Positions 3,777 to 35,818 of a stretch of DNA of 64,000 nucleotides are shown here, one piece after another. Origin of the DNA: Hyphomonadaceae bacterium. GTDB lineage: Bacteria; Pseudomonadota; Alphaproteobacteria; Caulobacterales; Aquidulcibacteraceae. Positions within the stretch are counted from its first letter, which is position 1, and each line of letters starts with the position of its first letter. Location of the stretch: the NCBI GenBank assembly GCA_041398325.1, contig JAWKUX010000014.1, positions 20,596-84,595 on the forward strand. Direction: 5' to 3'. Position numbers and translations under genes: made by a program. Under the pieces are notes generated by a model, which worked only from the letters and a program-made list of their open reading frames with translations, did no database searches and was not told where the DNA came from.

Positions 3777-4337
3777 ATGAACGTTTCCAGCGCCCCTATC
3801 GCGGGTTTTCCGGCGCTGGTGCTCAACGCCGATTTCCGCCCGCTGTCGTATTATCCGTTGTCGTTGTGGCCGTGGCAGGAAGCGGTGAAGGCCGTCTTCC
3901 TTGAACGCGTCGATGTGGTCGCGCACTACGATCACGTGATCCATTCGCCATCGATGGAAATGCGGCTGCCGAGCGTGATCTCGCTGCGCGACTTCGTGCA
4001 CCAGGATCGCCCTCCGGCGTTCACACGCTTCAATGTCTTCCTGCGCGACGGCTTCTCTTGCCAGTATTGCGGATCGCCGGACGATCTGACGTTCGACCAC
4101 GTGCTGCCGCGCTCGAAGGGCGGGCGGACGACGTGGGAGAACATCGTCACCGCGTGTGCTCCGTGCAATCTGCGCAAGGGCGGCAAATACGTGCAGCACT
4201 CCGGCATGCGTCCGTTCCGGCGTCCGCGCCGGCCGACGATGCATGAGCTGCAACATGTTGGCCGCCGCTTCCCGCCTCACCACCTGCACGAAAGCTGGAT
4301 GGATTACCTGTATTGGGACGTCGAGTTGGACGCCTAG
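3777..4337 (+). CDS. HNH endonuclease
   Basis: CQYCGSPDDLTFDHVLPRSKGGRTTWENIVTACAPCNLRKGG = HNH motif. 186 aa. Confidence 0.85.
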   Translation: MNVSSAPIAGFPALVLNADFRPLSYYPLSLWPWQEAVKAVFLERVDVVAHYDHVIHSPSMEMRLPSVISLRDFVHQDRPPAFTRFNVFLRDGFSCQYCGSPDDLTFDHVLPRSKGGRTTWENIVTACAPCNLRKGGKYVQHSGMRPFRRPRRPTMHELQHVGRRFPPHHLHESWMDYLYWDVELDA

Positions 4338-4343
4338 CGCTGC

Positions 4344-4544
4344 TCAGCGCAGCGCGGTGTCGCGTTCCATCCGCACCCCGTCGGGCGTAGCGCAGAAGCC
4401 ATTGCCGATCTGCTCCAGACGAGCGCCGACCGCGAACTCAAGCTTGGCTCGCGCGGTGTAGACGGTGGCGCGTATCGGTGGGTCGATGGTGGCGCCCACG
4501 ACCCAAGCGGCGGCGGCGATTGCGAGTGCTTGTGCGACGCTCAT
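4344..4544 (-). CDS. Hypothetical small protein (66 aa)
   Basis: ORF-only evidence. Lies downstream of the flp pilin gene on the same strand. Confidence 0.3.
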   Translation of the reverse strand: MSVAQALAIAAAAWVVGATIDPPIRATVYTARAKLEFAVGARLEQIGNGFCATPDGVRMERDTALR

Positions 4545-4622
4545 ATCCCTGGCTCCCTCGGCCAGGGTGTCTAGTGCCCGTTCTTTGCGCCTGTTCGTCG
4601 GCGCTGAAACAAAGCTGAAATG

Positions 4623-4781
4623 TTAGCCGAGGCTGGCAGCCGCTTCGTTGAAGGTGCCGTCCAGGGACTGGCCGACAGCGCCGACGGCGCCGATGATCAC
4701 CAGACCGATGAGCGAAGCAATGAGGGCGTATTCGATCGCGGTCGCGCCGCGCTCGTCGCGGAGAAAGCGGAGGAGGGTCAT
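4623..4781 (-). CDS. Flp/Fap family type IVb pilin
   Basis: 52 aa: MTLLRFLRDERGATAIEYALIASLIGLVIIGAVGAVG... This is the classic Flp motif (G-ATAIEY-LI). The start ATG overlaps the mutT stop (ATGA). Confidence 0.75.
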   Translation of the reverse strand: MTLLRFLRDERGATAIEYALIASLIGLVIIGAVGAVGQSLDGTFNEAAASLG

Positions 4782-5218
4782 GCGGCGTTCCGTTCGATCA
4801 GGCGGTTGACAAGAACCACATCGGCCGGCGGCATCTCGTGCGTGCGCAGCTCCTGCGGTTGAATCCATTTTGCGGCTTGAGCGGAATTGGGGTCGAGTTT
4901 CATTACGCCCTGCCACTTGGTCGCGACATAGAGCGGCATCAGAAGATGGAAATCCGGATACGCGTGTGAAGCAAACGCGAACGGATCGAGAGCATCGGGC
5001 TCTACCAGCAAATCCAGCTCCTCTTTCAGCTCCCGAACGAGTGCCTGCTCGGGCGCCTCTCCCAATTCGACCTTGCCGCCGGGAAATTCCCAGAGGCCGC
5101 CGAGTTGCTTGTGCGAGGGCCGCTGCGTGATCAGCACACGGCCCGATGAATCCAGCAACGCGGCAGCTGCAACCAAGAGCAGGCGCCGCGATGAGGGGGC
5201 ACTATCGCTGGTTTGCAT
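4778..5218 (-). CDS. mutT: NUDIX hydrolase (MutT-like 8-oxo-dGTP diphosphatase)
   Basis: Nudix box GGKVELGEAPEQALVRELKEELDL. 146 aa. Confidence 0.85.
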   Translation of the reverse strand: MQTSDSAPSSRRLLLVAAAALLDSSGRVLITQRPSHKQLGGLWEFPGGKVELGEAPEQALVRELKEELDLLVEPDALDPFAFASHAYPDFHLLMPLYVATKWQGVMKLDPNSAQAAKWIQPQELRTHEMPPADVVLVNRLIERNAA

Positions 5219-25782: not shown

Positions 25783-26196
25783 TTACCAGTTGCGGCGCGG
25801 GCCGCGTCCGTAGCCGCCGCGGTCGGCGGCATTGCCGCTGTCGCCATCGGTGACGCCGCTTGCGGTGCGGCGCGTTGCGCCACGGCCATTGCCCGCATTG
25901 TCGGCGTTGCCGCCGGAATCGGTGTCGGTGAGACCAGTCCGGCCGCGGCCATTGGTGTTGCCGCCGAGGCCGTAACCTGCGCGGTCGGCGCCGTTGCCGC
26001 TGTCGCTGTCGGTCAGGCCGGTGCGACCGTAGCCGCCGCGGTCAGCATAGCTGCCGCTGTCGTTGTCGGTGCGGCCGGTGTAGTTCTGGGCTTCGGCTTT
26101 GCCGGTGATCATGGCCGTGGCGCCGCCAGCGATTAGCGCGCCCCCCGCGATGCGGGTCATAAAAGAACGGCGGTTGAGTTTCTTCTTGTCGGACAT
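25783..26196 (-). CDS. Tat-signal Gly/Asp-rich tandem-repeat secreted protein
   Basis: MSDKKKLNRRSFMTRIAGGALIAGGATA twin-arginine signal. At least 4 repeats of G-x-TD-x-DSG-x-x-AD-x-x-GYG. GGGGGG RBS before the ATG. Confidence 0.55.
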   Translation of the reverse strand: MSDKKKLNRRSFMTRIAGGALIAGGATAMITGKAEAQNYTGRTDNDSGSYADRGGYGRTGLTDSDSGNGADRAGYGLGGNTNGRGRTGLTDTDSGGNADNAGNGRGATRRTASGVTDGDSGNAADRGGYGRGPRRNW

Positions 26197-26389
26197 GAAC
26201 CCCCCGGATCGACTTGCTGCCAGTGCTCGCAGCCATTGTCCTCGCACAGAATCAGTAACACGCGTTCGGGGCGTTCGTCAGCGTGAGAATGGTTCGCAAG
26301 AGGTCCCGCATTCGTGGGGATGGTACGGCGGTCATGAGCTTCCCGGTGTCCGCCGAATCTCACGATGATGGCGGCAGCAAGAGGTCAGA

Positions 26390-27010
26390 ATGATCGGGTC
26401 TTTGAGTGGTGTCGTGGCGGCAGTGGGTGAGGACACCGCACTGATCGATGTGGGCGGCGTCGGGTACGTCGTGCAGTCGGGTGGGCGCACGCTGGCGCGG
26501 CTGCAGGTTGGCGGACCGGCGCGGCTTTATGTCGAGACGCATGTGCGCGAGGATGCGATCAAGCTGTTCGGCTTCGCCTCCGAGGAAGAACGCGCCTGGT
26601 TCGCGCACCTGCAAACTATTCCAGGCGTCGGCGCCAAGGTGGCGCTGGGCATTCTCGACGCGATGCCGCCGGAAGCGCTGGCTGACGCGATTGCACTGCA
26701 AGACAAAGCTGCGTTCGCACGCGCCAACGGTGTGGGTCCGAAGCTTGCCGCGCGCTTGGCGACGGAACTGACAGGCAAGGGCGGGCCTAAGGGTTTCATC
26801 GGTCTGGGCGCGCCGGCGCCACGGGCCGCGAACGCGCCATCGGCTGTCTCCGGAACCGGCGCCCGCGCTGAGGCGGTCTCGGCGCTGGTGAACCTCGGCA
26901 TCGACCAATCGAGCGCCGCGCGCGCGGTGGCTTCGGCCGCCAAACAGTTCGAAGCGGATGCGCCGGCGCCGGAACTGATCCGCGCCGCGCTGAAGGAGGT
27001 CAGCCGCTAG
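26390..27010 (+). CDS. ruvA: Holliday junction DNA helicase RuvA
   Basis: MIGSLSGVV...HLQTIPGVGAKVALGILD helix-hairpin-helix motifs. AAGAGG RBS. Confidence 0.9.
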   Translation: MIGSLSGVVAAVGEDTALIDVGGVGYVVQSGGRTLARLQVGGPARLYVETHVREDAIKLFGFASEEERAWFAHLQTIPGVGAKVALGILDAMPPEALADAIALQDKAAFARANGVGPKLAARLATELTGKGGPKGFIGLGAPAPRAANAPSAVSGTGARAEAVSALVNLGIDQSSAARAVASAAKQFEADAPAPELIRAALKEVSR

Positions 27011-27060: not shown

Positions 27061-27537
27061 GTGGGCGAAGAACAATTCCAGGCATTGGTTAGGGAGCACA
27101 TCGGCGTGCTCCATCGCGTTGCCCGCGGCTTCGCGACTGGCGCGGATCAGCAAGATTTGCTGCAGGAAATGCTGATTGCGGTCTGGCGCGCGGCGCCGGC
27201 GTTTCGCGGCGAAAGTGCGCCGAGCACTTTCATCTTCCGCGTCGCGCACAATCGCGCGCTGACTTGGCGGCGCGGCGAGGTGCGCCGGCGGCGGCGCGAT
27301 GATGAATATCAACGCCTGCACGTCGAAGAGGTTAGCGGCGAAGATCCGCTGCTGGAGCAACTCTACGCCGCCATTCGCCAGCTTGAGCCGCTTGATCGCT
27401 CGCTCGTGCTCTTGTCGCTTGAGGGCCAGAGCTACGCCGAGATCGCCGCGCTGCACGGGCTTTCGGAAACCAATGTCGGCGCGCGGCTTTCGCGGGCGCG
27501 CCAGAAACTCACACAACTCACGGAGCAGGCGTCATGA
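27061..27537 (+). CDS. ECF-type RNA polymerase sigma-70 family factor
   Basis: Region 2 (FIFRVAHNRALTWRR) and region 4 HTH (LEGQSYAEIAALHGLSETNVGARLSRARQKL). GTG start with GGGAG RBS. Confidence 0.8.
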   Translation: MGEEQFQALVREHIGVLHRVARGFATGADQQDLLQEMLIAVWRAAPAFRGESAPSTFIFRVAHNRALTWRRGEVRRRRRDDEYQRLHVEEVSGEDPLLEQLYAAIRQLEPLDRSLVLLSLEGQSYAEIAALHGLSETNVGARLSRARQKLTQLTEQAS

Positions 27538-28133
27538 ATTATGAAGCATTGCAAGCGGCTTGGGCGTCGAGCGGTAATAATCCGAGTGCTGCGGCCAGCG
27601 CCTACGTCATGGCTGAAGCGCAAGCGGAGCTTTCGCAGCGCGCATCGAACTTGCGGCGGATGTTGGTGTTTGCCGGTGTGATGCTGACGATTCCGCTGGC
27701 GCTGATGGGCGTCGATATATTCACCGGCCAGGTGGATGCGATCGATCTCAGCCGCGAGTGGGGGCTCGTTCCGTTTGCTCTGATCCCGTTCATCGCGCTG
27801 TTTGTGATCGCGCAGCGGGCCGCGCCTAAGGCGCCGCCAAGTGGCTCGTTGCTGCAAACGTTCCGCGCGCTGCGGGCTGATAATGCGGCGGCGCGGCTGC
27901 GTATCTTCATCATCGGTGGCGCGATGCTGGTGTTTGCGCCGTTGCTCTTGGTGCTGCTCAACCAGATTGTCGCTACCGGCAAAATGGCGTCGCACGAGAT
28001 GCAAAGCGCGGCGCTTGTGCTGGGCGGGGCGCTGGCGCTCAGCGCGGGCTGGATGGGTGTGAAGTATGTCACCCAGCTCGCACCCGAGCGCCGCCACCTC
28101 GATGCGCTGATCGCGCAGTACGAGACGACCTAG
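27534..28133 (+). CDS. Putative membrane anti-sigma factor
   Basis: ATGA overlap with the sigma factor stop. Cytoplasmic N-terminus plus 3-4 TM helices. Confidence 0.5.
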   Translation: MNYEALQAAWASSGNNPSAAASAYVMAEAQAELSQRASNLRRMLVFAGVMLTIPLALMGVDIFTGQVDAIDLSREWGLVPFALIPFIALFVIAQRAAPKAPPSGSLLQTFRALRADNAAARLRIFIIGGAMLVFAPLLLVLLNQIVATGKMASHEMQSAALVLGGALALSAGWMGVKYVTQLAPERRHLDALIAQYETT

Positions 28134-28495
28134 GTCGTCTGGTATCCGAACATCGGCCGCATCTCGCAGACGCCCTCCCATTCGGGCCAGTGTGTGCGGT
28201 GCAGCTCCATGAAGCTTTCGAGCGAAGCGAGTGCTTCTTCGCGCGTGGCGAACTCGAAGATGGCGAAGCCGCCGAGCACTTCCTTGGTTTCGGTGAAGGG
28301 GCCGTCAGTCAGCTTGAGTTTGCCGCGCCGGGATTCCATGCGGGTGCTGCCCATAGCGGTGGGCATGAGTCCGCCGCGCGCAATCATCCGGCCCGCAGCC
28401 ATCTCTTGTTCGGTGAGCTTTTCGATCTCATCGATCATGCGCTGCGGCGGCACGAGGCCAGCTTCGGGGCCGGACGTGAGAAACATGTAGCGCAA
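28130..28495 (-). CDS. YciI-like/DGPF domain protein
   Basis: LTDGPFTETKEVLGGFAIFE (DGPF motif). TTG start with AAGGA RBS (alternative ATG 28486). Confidence 0.7.
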   Translation of the reverse strand: MRYMFLTSGPEAGLVPPQRMIDEIEKLTEQEMAAGRMIARGGLMPTAMGSTRMESRRGKLKLTDGPFTETKEVLGGFAIFEFATREEALASLESFMELHRTHWPEWEGVCEMRPMFGYQTT

Positions 28496-28636: not shown

Positions 28637-29665
28637 ATGGCCGAAGCAGAACGCATCGTCACCGCTGACCGCATGCCCGGGGAGGGCGCTGACCGTGCGC
28701 TCCGTCCGCAGGGGTTCGACGAGTTCGTCGGCCAGCCGCACGCCAAGGCCAATCTCAAAGTGTTCGTGGACGCGGCGCGCAATCGCGGCGAGGCGATGGA
28801 CCACGTCCTGCTGTTCGGCCCGCCGGGCCTCGGCAAGACGACGCTCTCGCAGATCGTGGCGCGCGAATTGGGTGTCGGTTTTCGCTCGACCAGCGGGCCG
28901 GTGATTGCGCGCGCCGGCGATCTCGCCGCGCTGCTGACCAATCTCGAACCTCGCGACGTGCTCTTCATCGACGAGATCCACCGCCTCGCGCCGCAAGTGG
29001 AGGAGATCCTCTATCCGGCGATGGAGGACTATCACCTCGACATCATCATCGGCGAAGGTCCAAGCGCGCGCAGCGTGCGAATTGATCTGGCGCCGTTCAC
29101 ACTGATTGGCGCGACAACTCGTGCGGGCATGCTGTCGACGCCGCTCCGCGATCGTTTTGGCATTCCTGTGCGGCTAGAATTTTACGGGCCGGACGAATTG
29201 CTCGGCATCGTGACGCGCGGCGCTGCCAAACTCGGCGCGCCGATCACGCCGGAAGGCGCGATGGAAATCGCCAAGCGCGCGCGCGGCACGCCGCGTGTTG
29301 CTGTGCGTCTGCTCCGACGGGTTCGTGACTTTGCTGGCGAGAGCGTCATTGATGCGAAAGTGGCGGATGCGGCGCTGAAGCGTCTCGATGTCGATAGCGA
29401 CGGGCTGGATCTGTTGGATCGGCGCTATTTGCATGCGCTGGTTGAGACGTATTCAGGCGGGCCAGTCGGCGTTGAAACGCTGGCCGCGGCGCTCGCCGAA
29501 GCGCGCGATGCGCTGGAAGACGTGATCGAGCCTTACTTGATGCAGCAAGGCTTCGTTATGCGCACACCGCGCGGGCGCGTCGCCGCGCCGAAGGCCTATG
29601 AGCGCCTGGGCAAAAAGCCGCCGAGTGCTCCGCCGTCGAGTGGGAGCTTGTTCGGGGAGAAGTGA
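28637..29665 (+). CDS. ruvB: Holliday junction branch migration ATPase RuvB
   Basis: Walker [11 protein letters not shown], Walker [10 protein letters not shown], sensor/arginine finger regions. Confidence 0.95.
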
Positions 29666-30468
29666 TGCCCTCGCCAACGGTCAACAACTATCTCGATCAG
29701 GTTCGATTCCGAGCCCAGAACGCGGAAGCGGAGTTTGAAACGGCCGTCAAGTCGTTGCACGGTAGCCAAGCGGCAAAGGGGCTGCTGCGTTCGGGCGCAA
29801 CGATCAAGAAATCCTTGGATTTGCTTGCGGCCGATTTCGATAGACTTACTGATGAGTTGCTAGCGTACTTAGCTAAGACGCTTTCACGCACTGAGCTCGA
29901 TCGCTCTGAATTGCTAGGCCTGACAGCGCAAATACTACAGTCATCCAAGGCCGCATTCTCGGCACTGATACGGCCCGCGCTGCTTCGTTCATTTGCTCCG
30001 TCGAAAAGCATTGATGCCGTGATTGACGCCGGTATCGCTTCGGTGGGTCAGCGGCTGACGCTACGTCTCCAAGAATTCGCCTTCGGCCTAGATGATCACA
30101 CTCCAACATCGAAGGATTTTGCCGTGACCAACAACATCAACATCGGCTCCAACTTCGGTAATGTTCAGCAAGGCACGCGCGATTCATCTCAGACCATGAC
30201 GGTCTCGCTAGATGCCGGCGCGATCAAGGTTGCGCTTGAGCAATTTGATGTCGCGTTGGCAGGCCTCCCTGAAAGTGAGCGCGCGAAGATGATGCCCGAT
30301 CTGATTGCCTTGAGGGCTCAAGCTTCCAAGCCCTCATTGTCCGAGAGCGTTGTCAAAGAGATCGGTAAGAGTCTGAGAGGAGTGGCCGAAGGCATCGCGG
30401 GTAACTTGGCTACTCCAGCCTTTGTGACCGCGTGTGCGGCGTTGTGGTCGGCGCTGGGGATTGGCTGA
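29662..30468 (+). CDS. Hypothetical protein P1 (268 aa, low GC), paralogous C-terminal motif with P2
   Basis: ATGA overlap with the ruvB stop. GC ~52%. Motif [27 protein letters not shown]. Confidence 0.55.
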
Positions 30469-30471
30469 GCT

Positions 30472-31071
30472 ATGGTCGCTTCAGTCTACCATCGCTTAGC
30501 TGCGGACGTCTTTGCGGACGCAGATCGATTGGATCGCGAATACATCACGCGATGGTTCATGGCGTTCGCATCGAAAAAGCCACTCGAAATCGAACATCCT
30601 CGTACCGGCCGGTTTCATGTCGGAGGTTTCGCTTTCGGCGGTGACCTAGTTATTCGGTATGACCAATTCACGCGGACCATCATCGATGATTTTGTCGAGC
30701 GTCATCTTCGCGCTTGCGAGGATGGCCTCGAGGCCGTGCCCGATGCAAAGTTGGGTGCAGCGGTCCCAGAGTTTGCGGGGATGATTTTCTCTGCTGCAAC
30801 TCGACTGTCGGATCGGCAGGGCAAGTTGAAGCGCAGATTGTTGCGTGGATCCGGATCAGACTGGGCGCCTCTCTTTGAGCATGGCATGGACAGCATGATG
30901 TCCCGACTTGCGACGAAGGTCGATGAACTCAGGGTACTACGCGGCGCGGCAGGCGTCTCCAACACCGTGGTGATCGGGGCCAATTTTGGTGCCGTCCAGG
31001 TCGGAACGGTTGCTTCAAGCCAAACGCAGCGGACCATCACTCACGATCCGGCAGACCTCGGCGAGAATTGA
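30472..31071 (+). CDS. Hypothetical protein P2 (199 aa, low GC), shares C-terminal motif with P1
   Basis: Begins 4 nt after the P1 stop. Motif TVVIGANFGAVQVGTVASSQTQRTITHD. Confidence 0.55.
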   Translation: MVASVYHRLAADVFADADRLDREYITRWFMAFASKKPLEIEHPRTGRFHVGGFAFGGDLVIRYDQFTRTIIDDFVERHLRACEDGLEAVPDAKLGAAVPEFAGMIFSAATRLSDRQGKLKRRLLRGSGSDWAPLFEHGMDSMMSRLATKVDELRVLRGAAGVSNTVVIGANFGAVQVGTVASSQTQRTITHDPADLGEN

Positions 31072-31312: not shown

Positions 31313-32689
31313 ATGTCCGAATTGCTCGACGTCGTCTCAGGCGCGTCATTGCTCACGATCATCGGCGCGCTGATTGCGCTGTTCGTTATTGTCTCGATCC
31401 TGCTGCGCGTGGTGGTGCCCACCAACATGGTGCACACCGTTCAATCGAGGCGCAAGACCACCTCCTACGGCGCGGGGCAGAAGGCCGGAAACGTCTATTA
31501 TAATTGGCCGAGCTGGGTGCCGCTCATCGGCATCACGCGCATCATTCTGCCGGTCAACAACTTCGAACTCTCGCTGACGGGCTACGAGGCCTACGACAAA
31601 GATCGTGTGCCGTTCCGGCTCGATCTCACCGCGTTTTTCCGCATTGCGGACACTAACGTTGCCGCAGCTCGCATCGCCAACATGAAAGAGCTTGTGGCGC
31701 AGCTGCACTTCATCGTGCAGGGCGCGGCGCGGAAAATTCTGGCGACGCACGACATCCACCAGATCATGGTCGATCGCGCGACGTTCGGTGCGCAGTTCAC
31801 GCAAGAAGTTGCGACGGAATTGGCGAACTGGGGCGTCGAGCCGGTCAAGAACATGGAACTCATGGATGTACGCGATGCCGAGGGCTCACGCGTCATCGCT
31901 GACATCATGGCGATGAAGGCGTCAAACATCCAGATGACGAGCCGCATCGAAGTCGCAAACAACATGCGAGCGGCGCAGACGGCGGAAATCGCCGCGCGCC
32001 AGGAAGTCGAAGTGCGTGAGCAAGAAGCGCAGCAGGTCGTGGGCCAGCGCACCGCCGAGAAAGACAAGCAGGTCGGCATCGCCACCGAAAAGGCCGCGCA
32101 AGAAGTGCAGGCGGAAGCCGCGGTCACCCGCGAGCGCGAAATGCAAGTCGTCCGCGTCGCGACCATGCGCCAAGCCGAGATCACCAAAGACCAGCAAGTC
32201 GTCGCGGCCACGCAAGATAAGGAAACCACGATCCTGCGCGCCGATGGCGACCTTCAAGCCACCAAACTTTCGGCCGAGGGCATCCGTGTTGAGGGCAACG
32301 CCAAGGCCGACGCCGAGAAGGCGCTGCAGCTGGCGCCGGTCGCAGCGCAGATCGAGCTCGCGCGTGAGATTGGTCAGAACGAGGGTTACCAAGCCTATCT
32401 GGTCTCGATCCGCGGCGTCGAAGCCTACACGCAAGTGGGCGTCGAACAGGCGAAGGCGATCGCAGAAGCGGACGTGAAGGTGATCGCCAACACCGGCGAC
32501 ACCGTGCAGGGCGTGCGCGACGCGATGGGGCTCATTTCCCCACGCGGTGGCACCGCGATCGGCGGCATGCTCGAAGCGCTGAAAAACACGCCAGAAGGCG
32601 CGGCGCTGCTCGAACGCATTCTCCGCAGGGAAGCAGCTGCCGCGGCGACGTCCCCAAGTGCGCCTGCGGCATCGGGTGATAACGTCTAG
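31313..32689 (+). CDS. SPFH/band-7 (flotillin-like) protein
   Basis: N-terminal TM helix, SPFH domain and a long Ala/Glu/Gln coiled-coil (flotillin/YqiK-like). GAGGGAAAGG RBS. Confidence 0.85.
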   Translation: MSELLDVVSGASLLTIIGALIALFVIVSILLRVVVPTNMVHTVQSRRKTTSYGAGQKAGNVYYNWPSWVPLIGITRIILPVNNFELSLTGYEAYDKDRVPFRLDLTAFFRIADTNVAAARIANMKELVAQLHFIVQGAARKILATHDIHQIMVDRATFGAQFTQEVATELANWGVEPVKNMELMDVRDAEGSRVIADIMAMKASNIQMTSRIEVANNMRAAQTAEIAARQEVEVREQEAQQVVGQRTAEKDKQVGIATEKAAQEVQAEAAVTREREMQVVRVATMRQAEITKDQQVVAATQDKETTILRADGDLQATKLSAEGIRVEGNAKADAEKALQLAPVAAQIELAREIGQNEGYQAYLVSIRGVEAYTQVGVEQAKAIAEADVKVIANTGDTVQGVRDAMGLISPRGGTAIGGMLEALKNTPEGAALLERILRREAAAAATSPSAPAASGDNV

Positions 32690-33271
32690 CTAGCGTTCCA
32701 ACCCGGCGATGAGCAGGTCGATCAACGCATCGAGTTGCTTCAGATCGGTGGCGCCTGCGTCGAGCGCCACCATCGCTGGGTGGTGGAAGCGCGACGTGGC
32801 GTGCAGCAAGAGGCCGGCGCTCTTCTCAGCATCAGCAATGCGCCACGCGCTTTCGCGCACACCGTCTCGCAGGATCTCTGCTACCTCTTCGAGCAGATGC
32901 GCAACGTGGGCGGCGACGACGGTATGAGCGTCGTCGGTGATCGAGCGGTAGACGGCGAAGAGCTCTGGGTCTTCGAGCACCTTCTTGCGCTTGATCTCTG
33001 CGAGCGTGCGCAGCCAAGCCTTCAACCGCTTCGGCGCCGGTGTTTTCTTGTCCGCCGTTATCTTTGAGAGCGGCGCCATCACGTTGGCAAGCCAGCGTTC
33101 GGCCACCGCATCGAAGAGGGCGGTCTTGGAGGCGAAGTGTTTGTAGACGTTGGAGTGGCTCATATCGAGGGCGCGCGCGACGTCCACGACACCCGTCTTG
33201 GCGGGGCCGTGGCGTCGCAGCGTTTCGACGGTGGCGTCGAGAATGCGGTCTCTGATTGAATCAGTGCTCAC
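32690..33271 (-). CDS. TetR/AcrR family transcriptional regulator
   Basis: HTH: KTGVVDVARALDMSHSNVYKHFASK. GTG start inferred (RVSTDSIRDRILDAT). Confidence 0.7.
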   Translation of the reverse strand: MSTDSIRDRILDATVETLRRHGPAKTGVVDVARALDMSHSNVYKHFASKTALFDAVAERWLANVMAPLSKITADKKTPAPKRLKAWLRTLAEIKRKKVLEDPELFAVYRSITDDAHTVVAAHVAHLLEEVAEILRDGVRESAWRIADAEKSAGLLLHATSRFHHPAMVALDAGATDLKQLDALIDLLIAGLER

Positions 33272-33290
33272 GCGCGGAGTGATGCCTCCC

Positions 33291-34280
33291 TCATCGTTCG
33301 CTGTCGAGCATCGCCATCTGCTCGACGGCGTAACGTGCGCCAGCGACGGCTTCTGGTGGGGCGGATGCGTCGATGCGCTTGAGGTCCTCTGGCGAGAGCG
33401 TGACCGTAGCCGCGCCAAGCGCCTCGGCCAGGCGTTCGCGCTTGCGGGCGCCGATCAACGGCACAATGTCGTCGCCGCGCGAGGCAACCCAGGCGATCGC
33501 CAGCTGTGCGACGGTGCAGTTTTTTTCATCCGAGATCGTCTTGAGCGCGCGGACGAGCTCGAGGTTCTTGTTGAGATTGTCGCCCTGGAAGCGGGGCGAG
33601 TGGGCGCGGAAGCCGCTGATCGAACCGCCACCGAGGGCGCTTTCGCTGATCAGACCGCGTGAAAGCACGCCGTAGGCGGTGACGCCGATGCCGAGTTCGC
33701 GCAGCACCGGTAGAATTTCGCGCTCAACGCCGCGGGTGATCATCGCGTACTCGATCTGCAGGTCGACGATTGGATGGACGGTGTGAGCGCGGCGGATGTT
33801 ATCGGCGCCAGCTTCGGAGAGCCCGATATGACGGACGTATCCTTCCTTTACGAGGTCGGCGATGGCGCCAATAGTGTCTTCGATCGGGACGAGCGGTGAG
33901 ACGCGGGCGGGGCGGTAGATATCGATGTAATCGGCGCCGAGGCGCTTCAGCGAATAGGCGATGGCGGTCTTGGTGGCGGCGGGGTCGGAGGCGAACCCAA
34001 GGAAATCGCCGTTGGGGCCGCGCTGGGCGCCGTACTTCACGCTGAGCAGGTACTTGTCGCGGTTCACACCTTTGAGCGCCTCGCGCAGCAGCATCTCATT
34101 GTGGCCCATGCCGTAGAAGTCGCCTGTGTCGATCAGCGTGACGCCTGCTTCGATCGCGGCGTGAACGGTGGCGATGGATTCCTGTTGGTCAGCAGGACCA
34201 TAGAAGTCCGACATACCCATGGCCCCGAGGCCGATGGCTGAGACGGTGGGGCCAGTTTTTCCGAGACGGCGTGTGCGCAT
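33291..34280 (-). CDS. Aldo/keto reductase
   Basis: [24 protein letters not shown] and AKR signature regions. AAGGAG RBS. Confidence 0.85.
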
Positions 34281-34328
34281 GTGTGTGCTCCTTGCTGAGG
34301 AGCCATATCGCGCCTGAAGTAACAAAAG

Positions 34329-35023: not shown

Positions 35024-35818
35024 ATGTCTTCATTGCGCGCGGTTTTGGAAACGCTCATCCCGGAGGGCGATGCCTTTGTCATCGATGCACCGGAAGACTG
35101 GTCGCAGGGGCGCACGCTCTATGGTGGCATGACCGCGGCGCTGGCCTTTGAGGTGGTGCGGCGCACCCAGACGGGGCTTGGGCCGCTGCGTTCCGCGCAG
35201 CTGACATTTATCGGTCCCGCGTCGGGGCGCTTGCGCTTCACGTCGACGCTTCTGCGTCGCGGGAAGTCTTCGGCGCTCATCGCGGCCGAGTGCTTCAACG
35301 AAGATGGGGCGGCGGCGCGGGCTGTGTTCGTGTTTGGCACCGTGCGCGAGAGCAAGGTCTCGCACAGCTTTCTTCCGATGCCCAGTGTGCCTGCGCCAGG
35401 CGACGTCCCAGGCTTCCGCAAGGAAGGCGGCAACACACGGCGTGGCTTCTGGAACAACTTCGAAACGCGCTTGGCTGCGGGCGGACGTCTCTTCGATACG
35501 AGCGCCGAGCGCCCGGAGTTTTGGACGTGGACCCGTTTCCTAGACACCGGCGGCGCTGATCCGACGACGGCGCTGCTGGCGATCGCCGATTGTTTGCCGC
35601 CGGCGGCAATGGTGTTGTTTCCGGAGCCTGCGCCAATCAGCACGATGACGTGGATGGTCGACATCGCGCACGTGCCGGAGAGCCTCGATGGCTGGCATCT
35701 GCTGTGGGCGTCGAGTGAGCATGCTGGCGAGGGCTACTCGCTGCAGAACATGGCGATGTGGAGTAGCGGCGGCGATCTCATTGCCACCGGCCGCCAAATG
35801 GTGGCGATCTTCGCTTAA
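35024..35818 (+). CDS. Thioesterase-like superfamily protein (TesB/4HBT_3-like)
   Basis: 264 aa. Double hot-dog-like organisation. ATG at 35024. Confidence 0.65.
   Translation: MSSLRAVLETLIPEGDAFVIDAPEDWSQGRTLYGGMTAALAFEVVRRTQTGLGPLRSAQLTFIGPASGRLRFTSTLLRRGKSSALIAAECFNEDGAAARAVFVFGTVRESKVSHSFLPMPSVPAPGDVPGFRKEGGNTRRGFWNNFETRLAAGGRLFDTSAERPEFWTWTRFLDTGGADPTTALLAIADCLPPAAMVLFPEPAPISTMTWMVDIAHVPESLDGWHLLWASSEHAGEGYSLQNMAMWSSGGDLIATGRQMVAIFA

Follow-up and report, generated by a model that had tools for sequence, protein, structure and literature searches.

Two adjacent genes behind ruvB share a single N/Q/G-rich motif and relate to AbiT- and PDC-M14-type abortive-infection candidates

What two small, GC-poor genes are doing directly behind ruvB, and how they relate to known systems, is the question raised by the window analyzed here, a stretch of 64,000 nucleotides from contig JAWKUX010000014.1 of the metagenome-assembled Hyphomonadaceae bacterium genome GCA_041398325.1. 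The genes, which we call P1 (29665-30468, plus strand; 267 amino acids from its ATG, 268 from a GTG at 29662) and P2 (30472-31071, plus strand; 199 amino acids), are annotated by NCBI as 'hypothetical' (R3C27_12940 and R3C27_12945). The original prediction described them as foreign paralogues and as the best candidate in the window for an undescribed two-gene module, and the two open reading frames (ORFs), their low GC content and the shared motif all proved real by ORF calls, composition and BLASTP. On balance, we lean toward reading P1-P2 as a split, two-sensor variant of a set of modular sensor-motif-effector abortive-infection candidates related to AbiT and PDC-M14. The basic design of this set would join a variable, sensor-like N-terminal domain through an N/Q/G-rich motif to a C-terminal helical module of AbiTi/PDC-M14B type, the last helix of which is hydrophobic. 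P1 would be a complete unit of this kind, with N-domain (P1N), motif and C-terminal module (Cmod), and P2 would be a second sensor-like domain that keeps the motif alone.

The motif is the only part that the two proteins have in common. The P1 copy is internal (30121-30213, plus strand; residues 153-183 of 267) and the P2 copy C-terminal (30952-31035, plus strand; residues 161-188 of 199, GVSNTVVIGANFGAVQVGTVASSQTQRT). Pairwise BLASTP aligns 17 of 32 residues as identities, in the motif only, with an expectation value (E) of 2e-6, and hhalign aligns the P1 family with the P2 family over 25 columns at 60% identity (E 1.6e-5); the hidden Markov models (HMMs) of the two families also match across the families. 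The likeness of the two copies is thus more than chance, and the motif letters stand exactly as first quoted. Placing the motif near both C-termini, as had been done, is right for P2 and wrong for P1, where a conserved 84-residue module follows. Because neither BLASTP nor hhalign aligns anything beyond the motif, P1 and P2 are not paralogues, contrary to the initial claim.

AlphaFold2 models of both proteins, built from shallow alignments with a mean predicted local distance difference test (pLDDT) score of 75 each, leave the motif within a disordered stretch in P1 (residues 143-180, pLDDT ~30) and within a disordered tail in P2 (residues 161-199, pLDDT 35-42). N, Q, G, S and T make up 55-61% of the motif vs 18-26% elsewhere (in P1, 61% vs 26% for the rest of the protein). 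The motif is strongly constrained although disorder is predicted: all six P2 homologues keep N164, V166, I168, N171, G173-T179, S182 and Q184 unchanged, and N156, G165, Q168 and Q169 are nearly invariant among 66 diverse representatives of the P1 family, in which the mean frequency of the top residue is 0.52 for the motif vs 0.40 for P1N. The P1-family form reads N-x-I-x-(I/V)-G-x-M-x-G-G-x-(I/V)-Q-Q-G-(T/S)-x-x-S-x-Q and the general form of the modular family N-x-I-x-I-G-x-x-x-G-x-(I/V)-Q-(Q/V)-G-T-x-x-S-x-Q.

Searches of Pfam, NCBIfam, PHROGs and PDB sequences gave no usable match for P1 or P2, and a word-indexed search found just a handful of close homologues of either. An exhaustive phmmer search with the single P1 sequence as query against 1.84 billion cluster representatives (clusters at 50% identity) returned 288 clusters at E ≤ 1e-3, 107 of them at E ≤ 1e-10. 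The typical match is ~267 amino acids long and has the same three parts. P1N (29665-30108, plus strand; residues 1-148), which belongs to no Pfam family, is modeled as a helical bundle over residues 6-141 (pLDDT 80-96). Cmod (30214-30468, plus strand; residues 184-267 and stop) is modeled as four short helices over residues 184-264 (pLDDT 66-80), and its consensus is D..TIKAQLSKP.PS..IL.EAGKSLRN..EG..AG.LTP....AA.ALW.ALGLG. The last of these helices is Ala/Gly-rich and hydrophobic, ends in LGIG, and contains the Kyte-Doolittle (KD) maximum of P1 (1.64 for the 19-mer starting at residue 248); in 55 of 66 family members the maximum likewise falls in this helix, within the last 30 residues.

It is through motif and Cmod that P1 connects with the PADLOC defense models. 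P1 itself matches PDC-M14B at E 1.6e-4 and AbiTi at E 0.013, the latter alignment running from residues 157-251 to positions 3-103 of the 114-position profile. Across the family, 46 of the 66 members match PDC-M14B (best E 8e-10) and eight match AbiTi (best E 3e-7), always colinearly over motif and Cmod. Profile comparison thus makes Cmod a homologue of AbiTi and of the C-terminal part of PDC-M14B. With P1 placed in a family of at least 288 clusters tied to these models, the earlier statement that neither protein could be assigned no longer holds for P1; and because the P1 family is related to known defense-database models, the module is not wholly undescribed. P1N is also found on an alternative C-terminal module, in P0004 (L002-L006), P0011, P0018 and P0023, which lack the motif, and also in P0040 and P0051. 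This module follows the pattern NRYV.I.DNQ ... EIA.FEA.I ... hydrophobic tail. As a Cmod homologue the P0004 version was rejected, the hhalign alignment being colinear at a probability of only 7%, and P1N was likewise rejected in profile comparison as a homologue of the AbiTii domain. P0011 has an extra insert of ~110 amino acids between P1N and the alternative module.

P2 brings a different N-domain to the same motif. P2N (30472-30945, plus strand; residues 1-158), the proposed sensor, is modeled as a helical bundle with a beta hairpin over residues 1-159, at pLDDT values mostly of 70-95 (62-95 by 10-residue block), and has no Pfam, PADLOC, PHROG or PDB assignment; as an AbiTii domain it was rejected, hhalign against the AbiTii alignment giving a probability of 0.3%. 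P2 is intact and 57-73% identical across six loci from different genomic contexts, with 83 invariant columns that include nearly the whole motif, while the tail past the motif (31036-31071, plus strand, with the stop) is free to vary in length and sequence. P2N also occurs in solo proteins of ~200 amino acids (P0158-P0161 and P0163), where it leads directly into a clear C-terminal transmembrane helix (KD 1.84-2.43), which indicates that P2N is otherwise wired to membrane elements. Such solo genes, those at L076 2175-2735 and L077 921-1526 included, lie in unrelated chromosomal contexts.

The same parts recur in other combinations. In each of P0093 and P0138 a single chain runs from P2N (39-41% identical to that of P2; E 2e-30 and 3e-33) through a middle domain to motif and Cmod, the middle domain of P0138 matching the N-terminal part of PDC-M14B, and a 285-residue protein at L014 joins a P2N-like domain to motif and Cmod. 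In P0117 a Pfam AbiTii domain (E 8e-43) is followed by a linker and Cmod; proteins at L015-L018 are built likewise, and the linker contains the motif in L015-L017. Such AbiTii-Cmod genes, of ~294 amino acids, are common on plasmids of Aeromonas, Vibrio, Pseudomonas and Klebsiella. Motif and Cmod also stand behind other N-domains (P0076, P0079) and on their own, as proteins of ~115 amino acids that open directly with the motif (P0131, P0146, P0155 and others) and have the size of AbiTi.

In a domain HMM scan of 75 loci (L001-L075), with contig-edge and frameshift truncations set aside, ORFs with the motif and no Cmod were found only beside a gene with motif and Cmod. In Pseudomonas sp. NPDC087358 (L017), a gene for a 117-residue AbiTi-like protein (PADLOC AbiTi 6e-4, PDC-M14B 1e-9; 4e-16 with the P1-family Cmod HMM) precedes one for a 212-residue AbiTii protein (6e-50), and BLASTP likeness between the two (E 6e-4) is confined to the C-terminal tail of the second (..NTINIHSMENSQIQQANADSDQ) and the N-terminus of the first (NNITVGTMENSQVQQDVQHSTQ). 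On plasmid pSYN7502.01 of Synechococcus sp. PCC 7502 (L082 1361-2702), a 212-residue gene lies upstream of an AbiTii-domain gene, and their similarity (E 7e-6) is limited to the motif (NNFHGNVGAVQNGDRNIAHVTQN and QNFYATVGAVQTGRENTANVNQT). The partners' motifs are 48-70% identical in four pairs. We conclude from these comparisons that split systems keep the motif on both halves, with P1-P2 as the third independent case, and that P1-P2 is unusual among them in that the effector-bearing partner has an N-domain of its own. In L017 (3497-5641), and also in L075, a fused AbiTii-motif-Cmod gene stands directly upstream of the split AbiTi-like and AbiTii pair, an order from which fused and split versions of the same system are seen to lie in tandem; all of these genes carry the variant motif SM(E/H)NSQ(I/V)QQ.

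The pair behaves as a unit in its genomic distribution. P1 and P2 homologues are adjacent by sequence in the window and at L001, L007, L008 and L009, in the same order and 1-4 nt apart, although at L001 the contig edge leaves no more than the final 73 residues of P1 in view; on a JGI contig the pairing is deduced from gene size (267 and 204 amino acids) and a spacing of 4 nt. The two-gene module proposed at the outset is thus borne out in every locus with visible context, and for P2 the question whether the genes always occur together is answered in the affirmative, pairing with P1 being kept in all P2 loci. Flanking the JGI pair are genes for a Metallophos-nSTAND NTPase, DUF4062 protein, resolvase and integrase. 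At L010 (369-6893), in a Hyphomicrobiales metagenome-assembled genome, a solo P1-family gene (3995-4792) is inserted, in opposite orientation, into a prophage head module, among TerL, MerR-like, capsid, S78 protease and portal genes. Other family members have core genes as neighbors (rpoD at L013, mutL at L014).

The composition of the pair is foreign, as had been claimed. GC content is 55.5% in P1 and 56.8% in P2 vs 62.7% in the whole window, and GC content at third codon positions (GC3) is 0.61 and 0.60 vs 0.73-0.80 in all neighbors (~0.77). The locus also changes between close relatives. In the relative L003, RuvA, RuvB and the Band_7 protein are 95%, 96.5% and 91% identical to those of the window, and the gene after ruvB (P0004, GC3 also low at 0.60) is 60% identical to P1 over P1N, then has the different C-module, and comes without motif or P2. 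Window and L003 lose their DNA similarity near P1 residue 141 and regain it shortly before Band_7; in L003, MatE and YjbR genes lie between P0004 and Band_7. Because flanks this similar hold a different cassette, the slot after ruvB is a fast-evolving cassette site, with the flotillin gene as a core neighbor. Taken together, these comparisons indicate that P1-P2 is a horizontally acquired, conserved two-gene module.

The SPFH/Band_7 (flotillin-like) gene downstream (31313-32689, plus strand; 458 amino acids; Pfam Band_7 E 7.5e-11; no PADLOC match) lies outside that module. The question whether it always accompanies the pair is answered in the negative: the gene has an ordinary GC3 (0.78), its product is 91% identical in L003, where P2 is missing, relatives L002-L004 all have it without P2, and no other informative P1-P2 locus has an SPFH gene. 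None is called in the flanking sequence covered at L001, at L007 and on the JGI contig; L008 and L009, which end ~0-0.5 kb after P2, are uninformative. The alternative that the homologues are phage structural proteins is excluded by the lack of PHROG matches and of IMG/VR relatives in pattern scan and tblastn. A viral-contig search with the L017 AbiTii protein gave no match, and the plasmid searches gave none in Lactococcus.

Among the closest described parallels is AbiT of Lactococcus lactis (Bouchard et al. 2002, cited in PMC13064643), in which two genes, AbiTi and AbiTii, make up an abortive-infection system. Both loci consist of two small, adjacent, co-oriented genes, one bearing the AbiTi-like module, which opens with the motif and continues as a helical C-module, and the other encoding a sensor-like protein of ~200 amino acids, and no catalytic domain is recognizable in either system. 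The L017 pair, which is AbiT-type by PADLOC models (the lactococcal proteins themselves lying outside the comparison), shares the same kind of motif as P1/P2, and its gene order is, as in the window, effector and then sensor. In contrast to AbiT, P1 has an additional N-terminal domain of 148 residues, and neither P2 nor its homologues match AbiTii in Pfam or PADLOC at E ≤ 1. AbiTi membership applies to the module, through transitive profile matches, and does not extend to the full length of P1; the locus seems to work like AbiT and, because P2 lacks an AbiTii domain, is not a canonical member.

PDC-M14, a 'phage defense candidate' of PADLOC-DB v2 with genes A and B, offers the second comparison. 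Four PDC-M14B models align through their last 100-120 positions with P1 and the 46 matching family members, in a stretch that covers motif and Cmod; for P1, and for P0002 and P0003 (7e-5 to 5e-4), only profile positions ~130-253 of 261-276 are covered. P1N does not match the N-terminal half of these models, and PDC-M14A found no match in P2, its five homologues, the SPFH gene or any other neighbor. With no A protein and only half of B matched, the locus is not PDC-M14 as PADLOC defines it.

From these parts we can propose how the system might act. P1 and P2 would be co-transcribed and translationally coupled behind ruvB; their flexible motifs would then pair homotypically, P2 with P1 and P1 with P1. 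A trigger, most likely a phage protein, would be sensed by either N-domain and lead to assembly, and assembly would free the hydrophobic C-terminal helix of Cmod, which would act on the membrane and abort the infection. Cmod would accordingly be the effector, probably membrane-active through its Ala/Gly-rich last helix, and P1N and P2N alternative sensor or regulatory domains. We infer membrane action because P2N is elsewhere fused to a true transmembrane helix and because the hydrophobic maximum lies in the last 30 residues of so many family members. Between the defense and stress roles suggested at the start, defense is the better reading, suggested by the AbiTi/PDC-M14B homology, by genomic contexts that include nSTAND, DUF4062, resolvase and integrase neighbors and a prophage moron, and by evolutionary behavior: deviant GC3, cassette swap in a relative and plasmid-borne AbiTii-Cmod fusions are signatures of conflict systems.

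A further question is whether the motif might be an amyloid-like templating element. Amyloid signaling motifs common to adjacent genes include fungal PP, metazoan RHIM and bacterial BASS3, the last with Bell-domain effectors and NOD-like receptor (NLR) proteins, and reported motif identity within BASS pairs is 43-56% (bioRxiv 10.1101/2020.01.06.895854), compared with 48-70% for the partners here. As in those systems, a motif of ~25 residues is the sole similarity between two adjacent genes, lies at the flexible end of a globular domain, is N/Q/G/S/T-rich and contains a phi-Q-x-G core (VQVG in P2), and the effector takes the form of a small helical domain whose terminal helix is hydrophobic. 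Unlike them, the pair has no NLR/STAND receptor, P1 and P2 lack an NTPase domain and are modeled as helical bundles, the orientation is reversed, with the motif C-terminal in the sensor and N-terminal or internal in the effector, and the hosts are unicellular Proteobacteria.

Neither the RHIM nor the PP model of Pfam matched at E ≤ 10. BASS3 membership was rejected: an HMM that we built from 118 BASS3 motif sequences (PMC8086366, supplementary file 38) scored P2 at 3.7 bits, rank 2 of 2120 ORFs and not significant (E ~4-7), and hhalign gave a probability of 1.7% (P 0.028). By eye, the Synechococcus motifs FHGNVGAVQNGDRN and FYATVGAVQTGREN are very like the actinobacterial BASS3 sequence FHGPTAVQTGDHN, the BASS3 HMM score again not being significant. 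From the failed BASS3, RHIM and PP profile tests and the absence of an NLR partner, we consider it doubtful that the motif is a homotypic, RHIM- or BASS-style amyloid-like element by which a sensor (P2 or AbiTii) would template an AbiTi-type membrane effector.

Other explanations of the pair have to be weighed against the split two-sensor reading. Were Cmod a toxic, membrane-active module and P2 a neutralizer that caps the P1 motif against self-assembly, the tight operon with its translational coupling would make sense, the shared motif would be a plausible binding interface, and the variable C-terminal cassette with its downstream gene would resemble a polymorphic-toxin tip with its immunity gene, since between close relatives the N-domain stays constant and the C-terminal cassette is swapped along with the downstream gene. 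We regard this toxin-antitoxin or immunity arrangement as unlikely. Some 40 P1-family genes have the same Cmod and no P2-like neighbor, so that Cmod is tolerated without an immunity gene; P2N is fused in cis to motif and Cmod and to transmembrane helices, which is the behavior of a sensor or regulator and not of an antitoxin; and P2 exceeds the putative toxin module in size and lies downstream of it. It is quite improbable, too, that P2 is the decaying remnant of a P2N-motif-Cmod gene truncated past the motif, leaving a motif without a role and a P1 that acts alone. Full-length proteins of that architecture are known (P0093, P0138, L014) and the majority of P1-family genes are solo, as such a history might predict, yet P2 is intact and conserved into the motif in all six loci with only its tail variable, its 1-4 nt pairing with P1 is kept throughout, and motifs on both halves recur in two independent pairs with an AbiTii-domain gene.

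Very improbable in our judgment is a housekeeping or stress module that would work with RuvB in DNA repair or with flotillin in membrane microdomains. It could account for the start codon that overlaps the ruvB stop in both window and relative, for the SPFH gene on the same strand and for the rpoD and mutL neighbors of other members; it is opposed by the deviant GC3 of P1 and P2, by a cassette that is replaced between close relatives and is 60% identical where flanking proteins are 91-96% identical, by P1-P2 homologues in unrelated contexts without ruvB or flotillin, and by family members on plasmids and in a prophage. The split two-sensor reading that we prefer faces objections of its own. 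Most P1-family genes (~40 metagenomic loci) are solo, and P2 is for this reason not needed by the family in general. P1's own PADLOC matches are weak, P2 matches neither AbiTii nor any PDC-M14A model, and the terminal helix of Cmod reaches only marginal hydrophobicity (family median KD 1.4), less than that of a classical transmembrane segment. In the window, no mobile-element boundaries, tRNA genes or defense genes adjoin the pair. Motif-motif binding, like the defense role and the membrane action, is something we infer; PDC-M14 is itself a candidate system, and AbiT has no established mechanism (PMC13064643).

The immediate surroundings of the pair correct several details of the locus. The context gene ruvB (28637-29665, plus strand; 342 amino acids; Pfam RuvB_N, AAA_lid_4 and RuvB_C, E down to 3e-79) ends in a TGA at 29663-29665, within a junction that reads GTGATG (29662-29667) and not ATGA as had been stated; the stop overlaps the P1 ATG by 1 nt or the upstream GTG by 4 nt. 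The P2 ATG lies 3 nt, not 4 nt, past the P1 stop. No promoter-like or terminator-like sites were found between ruvB and P2, and no repeats or noncoding RNAs bound P1-P2 in the window. Nor is a position wedged into a ruvB-ybgC junction supported: the nearest thioesterase gene (35024-35818), whose product is 77% identical to a syntenic relative's protein of the 4HBT_3 type, is 5 kb off, and the whole interval differs between close relatives. Genes for ruvA and ruvB are usually adjacent; here genes for an extracytoplasmic function (ECF) sigma factor, a putative anti-sigma factor and a YCII protein (27061-28495) separate ruvA (26390-27010) from ruvB, an order also kept in L003. A 154-residue protein encoded at 25783-26247 on the minus strand has a twin-arginine translocation (Tat)-like signal (RRSFMTRIAGGALIAGG) followed by ~5 Gly/Asp-rich repeats of the form TD.DSG..AD..GYGR. 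In the TetR gene region (32690-34325, minus strand), the longest TetR ORF (start 33418) overlaps the 3' end of an aldo-keto reductase ORF (33291-34325) by ~130 nt, and the true TetR start is probably further downstream than 33418.

AbiT was described in 2002, and PDC-M14 is just a database candidate. What this locus contributes is an organizing rule for the whole group, in which a conserved, disordered motif connects exchangeable sensor-like N-domains (P1N, P2N, AbiTii and others) with one AbiTi-like C-terminal module. The second half of the rule, in which the main value of the locus lies, is that both halves keep the motif when the system is split into two genes, and it yields a testable hypothesis on sensor-effector communication in AbiT-type systems. 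Two uncharacterized domain families, P1N and P2N, are defined along with it; P1N is the N-domain in most of the clusters matching P1, of which there are at least 288 at 50% identity. If the motif is not a homotypic or amyloid-like switch, the finding would be a modest extension of the catalogue of candidate defense systems. If it is, amyloid signaling would no longer be confined to NLR systems in multicellular bacteria, prion-like signaling would be at work in unicellular Proteobacteria and Cyanobacteria, in small abortive-infection systems that lack NLRs, and amyloid templating would explain how the two proteins of AbiT are coupled.

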